This document shows positions 16,728-18,045 of a stretch of DNA of 64,000 bases, in pieces. The position numbers were made by a program, and so were the translations under genes. Source of the DNA: an uncultured virus (IMG/VR IMGVR_UViG_3300022178_000001) (lineage: Duplodnaviria; Heunggongvirae; Uroviricota; Caudoviricetes); the IMG/VR virus record IMGVR_UViG_3300022178_000001. One strand, written 5' to 3'. Below the pieces are notes generated by a model. The model was given only the letters and a program-made list of their open reading frames with translations. It did not search any database and had not been told where the DNA came from. Position 1 is the first letter of the stretch; each line of letters begins with the position of its first letter.

Positions 16728-16928
16728 ATGTTGCCTTGCCCTTTTTGTAGAAACCCTTTAGGCTTCTCACTTGACTTCATAATAAAAAATCCTATATCTG
16801 CCTGTCCGGGGTGTAAAACAGTATTCAACTTTGCTGTTGAAGATGATATCAAGAGTAAAATGAATAAGGCGCTGCATGAAATTGAAACCGTAAAAAAGCG
16901 TTACCAAGGTTTGGTAAAATTTAATTAA
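16728..16928 (+). CDS. Zn-ribbon protein (CPFC...CPGC)
   Basis: AGGAG RBS; two CxxC motifs plus C-terminal helix. Confidence 0.75.
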   Translation: MLPCPFCRNPLGFSLDFIIKNPISACPGCKTVFNFAVEDDIKSKMNKALHEIETVKKRYQGLVKFN

Positions 16929-16936
16929 GGATATAA

Positions 16937-17539
16937 ATGGCTAATATAGCGAACAAATTTGTCGGTCTTCCGATTGAGCAGTTGATTACTGCCCCAATTA
17001 TCGGCATGGCAAAGGGTCAAGCACAACTTAACGATGTTACTTGGCAATACATTCAAGAAGTAGCATTTACAAAAGACGAAAAAACAGGCAAGACAGTAGC
17101 ACGTTCTCTCGATGTAGAGATGAACCGAGTTATGACAGATGGCGACACTGGGGAGCAATCAGTACAAACTTTGTACAGTAAAGTTCCAATGTTACCTTTG
17201 GTACCTCTGCCCTCCCTTGCAATCACATCAGCAGATATTAGTTTCATGATGGAAGTGCAAACTTCTAGTCAAGATACTAGTTCGGTTGATACAGAAAGTG
17301 AGATAAAAGCGTCTATTTCTGGCGGCTTCTGGGGAGCGAAGTATAAAGCTTCTATCTCTGGTAAAGTATCCACCAGTAAAGAAAGTATTCGAAAAACTGA
17401 TAATACTGCAAAGTATGAAGTAGCCGTGCACGCGGAACAACTACCCCCTACTGAAGGTATGTTAAAATTATCTGATTACTTGACACAAATGCTTGAACCT
17501 TCTTTAATTCCACTGACGCAAGACCCTAACGGCGGCTAA
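16937..17539 (+). CDS. DUF2589 family protein
   Basis: LPIEQLITAPI...AQL...IQEVAF...VPMLPLVPLPSLAI..ADISF.MEV; ..PEG..KL.D.L. Confidence 0.85.
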   Translation: MANIANKFVGLPIEQLITAPIIGMAKGQAQLNDVTWQYIQEVAFTKDEKTGKTVARSLDVEMNRVMTDGDTGEQSVQTLYSKVPMLPLVPLPSLAITSADISFMMEVQTSSQDTSSVDTESEIKASISGGFWGAKYKASISGKVSTSKESIRKTDNTAKYEVAVHAEQLPPTEGMLKLSDYLTQMLEPSLIPLTQDPNGG

Positions 17540-17565
17540 ACTACACTAAATTCTAGGATAAGAAT

Positions 17566-18045
17566 ATGTCAAAATTAAGTATTGAAGAGCTAGTTTCCGG
17601 ACTGTTGGAAAGTGCGATGGTAGCCCAAAGCATTAGTCAAAAGCAACATATCAATTCATTAAAAAATTACTTTAATGATGACGGTACTCCCAAAGTAGTC
17701 TCATTCCAAGTTGATGGTAGGCACATAGATTTCCCTCTTTATATTCTAGCAGATCATGGGTCTGTTGGACTAGATAAGTTAGATATTGAATTCGAAGCTA
17801 GGTTATTATTTGGCCAAAGTGGGGATGAAGTATCTCAAGTAAAGAAAGATGTTATGGGTTTATTCAAAGAAAAGGGAGATTCTTATAAGCATAATATTAA
17901 ATCTATTACTGTAGACAGTTCAAAATCTGAAAATTCTGGTGTTGCAAAAATTAAAGTACGTTTTAAAGCAGACGAGAGGCCGGAAGCTGTATCCCGGCTT
18001 CTCGATTTATACATTAATAGTTTAGAAGATCCTACAAAAAGATAA
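17566..18045 (+). CDS. DUF2589 family protein (second, divergent paralog)
   Basis: IEELVSGL..S...AQ...YFNDDGTPK...FPL..L.....LDKLDIEFE...PEAVSRLLD. Confidence 0.75.
   Translation: MSKLSIEELVSGLLESAMVAQSISQKQHINSLKNYFNDDGTPKVVSFQVDGRHIDFPLYILADHGSVGLDKLDIEFEARLLFGQSGDEVSQVKKDVMGLFKEKGDSYKHNIKSITVDSSKSENSGVAKIKVRFKADERPEAVSRLLDLYINSLEDPTKR

Follow-up and report, generated by a model that had tools for sequence, protein, structure and literature searches.

What is the function of a conserved set of three genes that follows the lysis genes of a phage? We addressed this question in a 64,000-nucleotide stretch of DNA from an uncultured marine virus of the Caudoviricetes (IMG/VR record IMGVR_UViG_3300022178_000001), referred to here as the window. 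In the window, a gene for a small zinc-ribbon-like protein is followed by genes for two DUF2589 proteins, a long paralog (A) and a short paralog (B); we refer to the three genes as the trio (Table 1). According to the original prediction, the trio was a candidate for an uncharacterized membrane-attack or assembly system appended to a holin-endolysin cassette. As a whole, this interpretation was partly supported by our analysis. We estimate that an envelope role of some kind has slightly better than even chances. In the specific form that we favor, the trio would be a lysis accessory, working with the endolysin on the cell envelope; this reading is tentative and has less than even chances.

The three open reading frames (ORFs) were found at the predicted positions and with the predicted lengths. 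Both paralogs exceeded the PF11655 gathering score of 23 bits, confirming that they belong to DUF2589, and A and B align over their whole length in a profile-profile comparison (96% probability, E 2.8e-9), which identifies them as paralogs. In the zinc-ribbon-like protein, C4, C7, C26, and C29 were invariant in 24 of 24 aligned orthologs. The two conserved CxxC pairs have the spacing of a zinc ribbon (about 15 to 20 residues), and metal binding is predicted from this pattern. The protein matched no Pfam, PHROG, or NCBIfam family, including the named zinc-ribbon families, and in the ESM Atlas it retrieved only unnamed clusters or clusters with minor shares of unrelated Pfam families. A heuristic hydropathy scan predicted no transmembrane (TM) helix and no signal peptide in any of the trio proteins.

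We scanned viral contigs by alignment and obtained 255 pattern matches, 216 of which were encoding loci. The best 80 of these 216 loci, together with one contig from the prokaryote collection that carries phage structural genes, constituted the 81 loci used to analyze the trio. The expectation that the three genes would occur together elsewhere was borne out, with a complete trio in 78 of the 81 loci and the remaining three cut by locus or contig ends. Two gene orders were detected, zinc ribbon-long-short in 44 loci and long-short-zinc ribbon in 34. Across the 81 loci, median identity to the window was 74% for A, 59% for B, and 54% for the zinc-ribbon-like protein. Relatives of A at E ≤ 0.001 amounted to 977 protein clusters from 1075 candidates, and almost all of the best 120 relatives listed were at least 74% identical. 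Compared with the syntenic viral locus L007, synonymous sites were saturated (proportion of synonymous differences, pS, 0.66 to 0.75), while the proportion of nonsynonymous differences (pN) was 0.10 to 0.14; therefore, the conservation of the trio reflects constraint rather than recent transfer. In the same comparison, the ratio of nonsynonymous to synonymous substitution rates (dN/dS) was about 0.09 for the zinc-ribbon-like gene and about 0.045 for A, with a value of 0.19 for the lysozyme gene. Judged by these sequence comparisons, the genes of the trio are under strong purifying selection and are more than chance ORFs. Contigs that carry the trio reach 483 kb, including the 250 to 480 kb class, and the phage of the window is siphovirus-like; the module has thus moved between unrelated phage types.

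Among cultured phages, a tblastn search of 50,697 deposited phage genomes with A gave no match, and two distant DUF2589 queries against phage genomes found only a 4-kb faecal fragment. A single-protein scan of cellular genomes also gave no match. An alignment scan of one genome per prokaryote species yielded a single contig of a metagenome-assembled genome (MAG), with phage structural genes aboard. The DUF2589 family as such was detected in 3 of 301 Gemmatimonadota genomes.

The feature on which the membrane-attack proposal was based, a hairpin rich in Ser, Thr, and Gly, was confirmed in the longer paralog only. The stretch originally singled out corresponds to A residues 121 to 147, and the corresponding stretch of B is shorter and is not a hairpin. 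The arms of the hairpin comprise about 12 to 14 residues each and are amphipathic with period 2; in the window A, hydrophobic and polar residues alternate in both arms (p 0.014 and 0.010 versus shuffles). Considering 69 aligned family members, 61% and 52% of the arms showed alternation at p<0.05, the turn contained an aromatic residue in 60 members, and the hairpin regions consisted of 22% Ser, 12% Gly, and 11% Ala. The turn residues were invariant in 18 close A orthologs. The proposed likeness to the insertion element of aerolysin-type toxins held for the amphipathic hairpin with its aromatic turn, which is found family-wide; searches by sequence and with a medium-confidence fold model gave no match to such toxins. 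In three loci (L013, L016, and L034), the B ortholog contains a peptidoglycan-binding domain, PG_binding_1 (PF01471, E 7e-8 to 7e-7, above the cut-off), inserted at the position equivalent to A's hairpin turn. Most B orthologs have no wall-binding domain.

One natural fusion of A and B was detected, a protein of 362 amino acids (aa) joined head to tail (P0271) and encoded on a single 4.6-kb contig, which may be taken as weak evidence that A and B act together. This long-short fusion was the sole result of a search for longer relatives of A. An alignment search for longer relatives of B, a weak search restricted to 448 to 2000 aa, found none, and no second Pfam domain was present in 40 longer DUF2589 representatives. 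Two variants were observed in addition: the B ortholog of L078 has a C-terminal extension with no family assignment, and in a metagenomic A ortholog of 254 aa (P0003), a stretch of about 55 residues that spans the central strands is duplicated internally in tandem.

The AlphaFold2 model of A, built from a 69-sequence alignment, is of medium confidence (predicted local distance difference test, pLDDT, 69; predicted template modeling score, pTM, 0.51). In the model, a long N-terminal helix (residues 13 to 43) lies on an antiparallel sheet, the C terminus is helical, and two long strands (residues 94 to 112 and 151 to 168) run into a low-confidence stretch (residues 110 to 154) that corresponds to the hairpin. 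The model of B was poor (pLDDT 53.5) and unfit for a fold search. A Foldseek comparison of the A model with the PDB, which had been proposed as a check, gave no match at E ≤ 0.001; VIA-align against 48,161 chains likewise gave no match at Z ≥ 5 (best Z 4.0). The top fold matches, all weak and non-significant, were FliF, secretins, and tail tube proteins, which form rings or tubes and have long hairpins. A sequence profile search of the PDB returned 0 matches, BFVD contained two homologs only, both without a name, A retrieved nothing but DUF2589 clusters from the ESM Atlas, and the trio matched nothing in PHROGs or NCBIfam. Of 10 proteins compared with the PADLOC defense models, none matched at a meaningful level, the single match being at chance level (zinc-ribbon-like protein, E 0.009). 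In the literature, we found DUF2589 in passing mentions only, with no member of tested function, and PF11655 was not mentioned.

In the window, the trio is part of a single plus-strand gene block (~14.7 to 40.5 kb) with the order 51-aa ORF, hsp20, holin-like gene, lysozyme gene, 50-aa Bfd-like ORF, trio, MazG-type gene, ThyX gene, and replication genes. The trio was originally placed directly after the lysozyme gene. It does lie downstream in a tightly packed arrangement, but the Bfd-like ORF and a 116-nt gap are in between. The upstream gene that had been called a holin encodes two predicted TM helices; by family, its product is only a member of phrog_2524, whose function is unknown. The lysozyme, our endolysin candidate, is leaderless, with neither a signal nor a TM helix predicted. 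In agreement with the claim that the cassette has no recognizable Rz/Rz1 spanin, a heuristic scan of the 64-kb window detected no spanin-like lipoprotein or TM pair and no lipobox ORF in or near the cassette; the phage genome extends beyond the window. Pattern scanning placed strong promoter-like sites ahead of the block and past the trio. Because the same kind of scan found no terminator-like site between the lysozyme gene and the trio, co-transcription of the trio with the lysis genes is possible, as judged by consensus patterns only.

We then examined whether proximity to wall enzymes extends to other viral loci. The PHROG scan covered 125 flanking genes from 18 of the 81 loci; its flank filter left out ORFs of <80 aa and plus-strand genes within the span of the module, and one endolysin was recovered afterwards. 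An endolysin gene lies two or fewer genes from the trio in five arrangements that involve three kinds of enzyme. In the window and L007, one small ORF separates a short PF00959 lysozyme gene from the trio, and in L020 and L031, one gene intervenes between the trio and a gene for a 281-aa PF00959 enzyme. A GH19 gene ends 1 nt ahead of the zinc-ribbon gene in L035, and another overlaps the stop codon of the short paralog by 4 nt in L082. In L080, a PF00959 gene follows the gene for a 2-TM protein and is separated from the trio by one small ORF. We merged long-paralog sequences at ≥97% identity into 21 lineages and clustered all flanking genes. PF00959 lysozymes occur near the trio in 4 of these lineages, and a family of holin-like 2-TM proteins of 80 to 99 aa, encoded one to three genes upstream, occurs in 4 different ones. 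The proposed linkage to lysis genes therefore recurs with non-homologous endolysins but is not universal, most loci being located among DNA-metabolism or structural genes. As a separate observation, in the large phage contig L044 and its equivalents L063 and L064, the trio lies inside a block of genes for exported, lipoprotein-like, and TM proteins. There, a 242-aa protein with a signal peptide is encoded directly downstream of the trio, and an exported protein of about 750 to 825 aa is encoded beyond it.

DUF2589 paralog pairs had also been claimed for bacteria, and the pairing of a long with a short protein was indeed seen in bacterial loci. Among six proteobacterial loci reached via a plasmid collection, four have a wall-cutting enzyme at the pair. 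In Burkholderia, a leaderless PF00959 lysozyme gene overlaps the pair, with no predicted TM protein beside it; on a deltaproteobacterial plasmid, a leaderless PF11860 muramidase is encoded 2 kb downstream of the pair; and on two Vibrio plasmids, an SLT/SBP_bac_3 transglycosylase gene adjoins the pair, divergent in one and directly downstream in the other. The pair on a 1.3-Mb replicon of Vibrio aquimaris (L104) lies amid five RebB genes (R-body "killing trait"), and a Francisella locus has neither a wall enzyme nor a RebB cluster at the pair. Two proteins with PatG domains and a regulator of the sigma-54-type/AraC kind are also encoded around the L104 pair. Annotated peptidoglycan-binding proteins occur near bacterial pairs, and particle genes were not found near the bacterial plasmid cassettes. 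The bacterial pairs resemble those of the phages in domain, in long-short pairing, in the hairpin with an aromatic turn, and in the frequency of wall-cutting neighbors. They differ in their third gene, which in three bacterial-type cassettes lies directly after the pair, encodes 91 to 94 aa (L091, L092, and L098; about 45% mutual identity), and is unrelated to the phage zinc-ribbon-like protein of 66 to 68 aa. The bacterial product has no family match and no TM helix; a 91-aa ORF in L105 is assigned to it by size and position only. The phage orthologs are also far more conserved than the bacterial pairs.

Three observations make an envelope role the best supported: the wall-binding domain inserted in B, the conserved hairpin with its amphipathic arms, and a juxtaposition with three kinds of endolysin that arose repeatedly and independently. 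Our estimate for such a role combines two forms, namely action after the holin, most likely at the outer membrane, and a lesion of the cytoplasmic membrane, which is weighed below. We favor action after the holin and at the outer membrane because a holin-like gene is present, no spanin is recognizable, and a wall-binding domain needs exposure to the periplasm. In this form, A and B would assemble into a hetero-oligomer, with the zinc-ribbon-like protein as a fixed small partner that might serve as chaperone, timer, or nucleator. Given that all three proteins are without a signal peptide, they would be made in the cytoplasm and would reach the periplasm once the holin-like protein opens the inner membrane. 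The short paralog would be turned toward the wall, while the aromatic-tipped amphipathic hairpin of A would insert into a membrane, here most likely the outer membrane, and this insertion would stand in for the spanin absent from the cassette. We infer complex formation, membrane insertion, the target membrane, and timing alike.

Several observations weigh against the favored reading. Lysis proteins normally diverge fast, and about 74% identity across unrelated phages is atypical of them. The A model resembles no pore-former, and its hairpin is modeled at low confidence. Endolysin adjacency is a minority arrangement, with most of the 18 scanned loci placed beside DNA-metabolism genes (ligase, thymidylate synthase, Nudix, helicase, primase), and in L071 and L083 the gene immediately ahead of the trio encodes the major head protein and a virion protein, respectively. 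In L080, L082, and L035, the cassettes encode small proteins in which a TM segment precedes a charge-rich, coiled-coil-like stretch, as read from the sequence; these neighbors may already supply a spanin-like function, although the L080 gene contains no embedded gene for an outer-membrane lipoprotein spanin (o-spanin). An 8-member alignment scan found 10 more distant DUF2589 loci on viral contigs, of which we examined six, leaving out four as near-duplicates with identical identity values; by Pfam, none of the six has a wall enzyme, and two of them resemble a Bacteroidota chromosome (fimbrillins, two-component regulators). Two Gemmatimonadota DUF2589 loci also lack a wall enzyme. On a giant-virus MAG contig (L096), a convergent DUF2589 pair lies 1.4 kb from a gene for the major capsid protein of nucleocytoplasmic large DNA viruses (PF16903 and PF04451, E about 1e-56); DUF2589 thus extends to eukaryotic viruses. 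Finally, DUF2589 genes are reported for Archaeoglobus (PMC3949148), an organism with neither peptidoglycan nor an outer membrane.

From the giant-virus contig and Archaeoglobus it follows that the core activity of the family is independent of peptidoglycan and the outer membrane, and the lipid bilayer is the sole target common to all DUF2589 settings. This favors the other form of an envelope role, in which the DUF2589 pair lesions the cytoplasmic membrane from inside, in a non-helical, gasdermin-like or holin-like manner, and releases leaderless muramidases, with the zinc-ribbon-like protein keeping the pair inactive until the right time. Consistent with such a lesion, the trio proteins have no signal peptide or TM helix, the leaderless Burkholderia lysozyme gene overlaps a pair that no predicted TM protein adjoins, and the muramidase of the deltaproteobacterial plasmid is leaderless as well. 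However, gene calls are crude in the GC-rich Burkholderia locus, where a holin was possibly missed, and this phage and several others already have holin-like TM proteins in the cassette. A folded peptidoglycan-binding domain at the position of the hairpin tip in B also fits poorly with insertion from the cytoplasmic side, and we regard a lesion from inside as unlikely. The neighbors that head and virion protein genes provide in L071 and L083, and the capsid gene beside the giant-virus pair, would fit a self-assembling, particle-linked element with no part in lysis, such as a virion-associated, internal, or assembly protein or a polymer with hairpin contacts. Assembly proteins are typically highly conserved, and the weak fold matches of A are to formers of rings and tubes. 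This explanation is nonetheless quite unlikely: the window trio belongs to the plus-strand block of lysis and nucleotide-metabolism genes, apart from the tail and head genes on the minus strand, a particle part would need to suit all of the unrelated phage types that carry the module, and no particle genes were found around the cassettes of bacterial plasmids.

The trio could also be a wall-directed helper with no membrane activity that binds peptidoglycan or the endolysin and targets, scaffolds, or restrains the enzyme. The PG_binding_1 insertion in the short paralog, the tight and sometimes overlapping arrangement with endolysin genes, and the peptidoglycan-binding proteins annotated near bacterial pairs are all compatible with a helper. 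Such a helper leaves the conserved aromatic-tipped hairpin unexplained, as well as the presence of the family in organisms and viruses without peptidoglycan, and most orthologs have no wall-binding domain; we regard it as very unlikely. We assign a similarly low probability to a host-directed moron that acts in superinfection exclusion, in killing of the abortive-infection type, or in protection from membrane stress, and not in lysis. Movement between unrelated phages with variable neighborhoods would be typical of a moron, hsp20 and MazG-type genes are close by in the window, and one Vibrio pair is located within the RebB cluster. On the other hand, at E 0.01 the PADLOC models gave nothing besides the chance-level match, few genes of the region are as conserved as those of the module, whereas defense and exclusion genes usually evolve fast, and the linkage to endolysins would remain without an explanation.

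Returning to the favored accessory of the lysis apparatus, we compared the trio with systems of known function. Like the spanins (lambda Rz/Rz1, T1 gp11), the trio has a place in the cassette past the holin-like and endolysin genes and a supposed task of breaching the last layer of the envelope. Unlike spanins, its proteins have no TM helix and no lipoprotein signal; therefore, by its defining features the trio is not a spanin and is at most a functional stand-in for one. Holins have at least one alpha-helical TM domain, which the trio proteins lack and which the upstream phrog_2524 protein has twice over. According to one source (10.1101/515445), spanins are missing from about 15% of phages, and disruptin, gp28 of phage phiKT, is described as an outer-membrane disruptor of a spanin-less phage. 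Like the trio proteins, disruptin is soluble and is not a spanin, and it has been proposed to disrupt the outer membrane once holin and endolysin have acted. It differs in being described as a single cationic peptide of the antimicrobial type, compared with three proteins here, two of them beta-rich and about 160 to 200 aa long, and no relationship in sequence is to be expected. Beta-barrel pore-formers of the aerolysin, alpha-hemolysin, and gasdermin types share with A a Ser/Thr-rich amphipathic hairpin with an aromatic tip, the hairpin being modeled at low confidence in the monomer, but the trio has no Pfam toxin match, and the medium-confidence A model gave no Foldseek (E ≤ 0.001) or VIA-align (Z ≥ 5) match. 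In lysis-based release (type 10 secretion; lysis genes in R-body clusters), the points of similarity are the DUF2589 pairs beside leaderless muramidases and the one pair inside a RebB cluster. A 2026 preprint (PMC13733733) reports muramidases, GH24 lysozyme, and holins near reb genes. The difference, going by the abstracts on such release systems, is that canonical holins, endolysins, and spanins are used and no DUF2589 protein is named.

In its broadest form, our proposal treats DUF2589 pairs as membrane breachers of a new class, soluble, leaderless, and equipped with a beta-hairpin. Aquatic phages, bacteria, archaea, and giant viruses would use them to open a bilayer, either on behalf of a wall-cutting enzyme or after it has acted; in phages, the zinc-ribbon-like protein would control them, and they would replace spanins in cassettes that have none. 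We consider this generalization doubtful. If it were true, holins, endolysins, spanins, and disruptin would be joined by a fifth kind of lysis protein in phages. Little has been settled about how spanin-less phages get through the outer membrane, and studies of this have dealt least with marine and freshwater phages. The module is abundant, is more conserved than the adjoining endolysin, and has no resemblance to solved structures. A membrane-breaching function would provide a new protein architecture and a new lysis-region marker for the genomes of uncultured phages, and it would explain the leaderless muramidase cassettes of bacteria. Even with any other function, few unexplained gene sets of aquatic phages would match the trio in conservation.

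Table 1. Coordinates of features in the 64-kb window and in the other loci considered.
Feature	Location	Strand	Remarks
MazG/PRA-PH-type pyrophosphohydrolase gene	window, 13402-13866	-
Hydrolase_2 (SleB-like)	window, 13975-14463	-	PF07486
Promoter-like site	window, 14707		Strong (11/12); ahead of block
51-aa ORF	window, 14773-14928	+	L007 counterpart at 3765-3986
hsp20	window, 15024-15452	+	Upstream of holin-like gene
Terminator-like hairpin	window, 15582-15599		After hsp20, inside 5' extension of longer holin-like ORF
Holin-like membrane protein	window, 15619..15996	+	Probable start ATG at 15619; L007 ortholog begins at equivalent Met
Lysozyme, endolysin candidate	window, 15999..16460	+	PF00959, E 6e-10; PHROG endolysin and tail-lysozyme families
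52-aa ORF	window, 16051-16209	+	L007 counterpart (53 aa) at 5102-5263
50-aa Bfd-like Cys-rich ORF	window, 16460..16612	+	Between lysozyme and trio
Zn-ribbon-like protein, 66 aa	window, 16728..16928	+	CPxC...CPxC, hydrophobic center, C-terminal amphipathic helix-like tail
Long DUF2589 paralog A, 200 aa	window, 16937..17539	+	PF11655, 101.5 bits, E 7.4e-29
Ser/Thr/Gly-rich amphipathic beta-hairpin	window, 17285..17377	+	GGFWG turn; residues 117-147 of A
Short DUF2589 paralog B, 159 aa	window, 17566..18045	+	PF11655, 51.4 bits, E 2e-13
MazG/PRA-PH-type pyrophosphohydrolase gene	window, 18071-18322	+
Promoter-like site	window, 18411		Strong; past trio
NAD-dependent DNA ligase, consecutive ORFs	window, 22183-23142 and 23228-23983	+	phrog_3359, phrog_3498
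Trio in block of exported proteins	L044, 3900-10600
Convergent DUF2589 pair, giant-virus MAG contig	L096, 2445-6396
DUF2589 pair amid RebB genes, Vibrio aquimaris	L104, 3713-7993
Bacterial third gene	L091, 6920-7195
Bacterial third gene	L092, 6915-7199
Bacterial third gene	L098, 5678-5959
Bacterial third gene	L105, 5851-6126

The gene content of the window, which includes a tape measure protein, a major tail protein, and a central tail fiber, indicates a large, siphovirus-like source phage. Genes for PolA, SbcCD, ribonucleotide reductase, and PhoH are also present, as is an NAD-dependent DNA ligase gene split over two consecutive ORFs. None of the 50,697 deposited phage records is a close relative of the window, and the nearest relative record is a viral contig of 33.6 kb. 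Two nucleotide pyrophosphohydrolase genes of the MazG/PRA-PH type flank the region. In NCBIfam, the Bfd-like ORF matches bacterioferritin-associated ferredoxin weakly (E 2e-4, below the cut-off), and it is kept in L007 with 58% identity. The lysozyme gene also contains, out of frame, a 52-aa ORF whose product would begin with a strong TM segment and end in a basic tail. Because this ORF coincides with the best-conserved region of the lysozyme, constraint on the main frame may account for its conservation. The Hydrolase_2 protein, encoded 1.5 kb from the lysis block, has a signal-peptide-like N terminus and is a second wall hydrolase, so the phage has two peptidoglycan hydrolases. At the start of the block, the 51-aa ORF that follows the first promoter-like site is conserved in L007 and has no family match. 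Its product has a hydrophobic N terminus with a lipobox-like LIGC at its end and an acidic tail, features that would suit a small lipoprotein or membrane protein.

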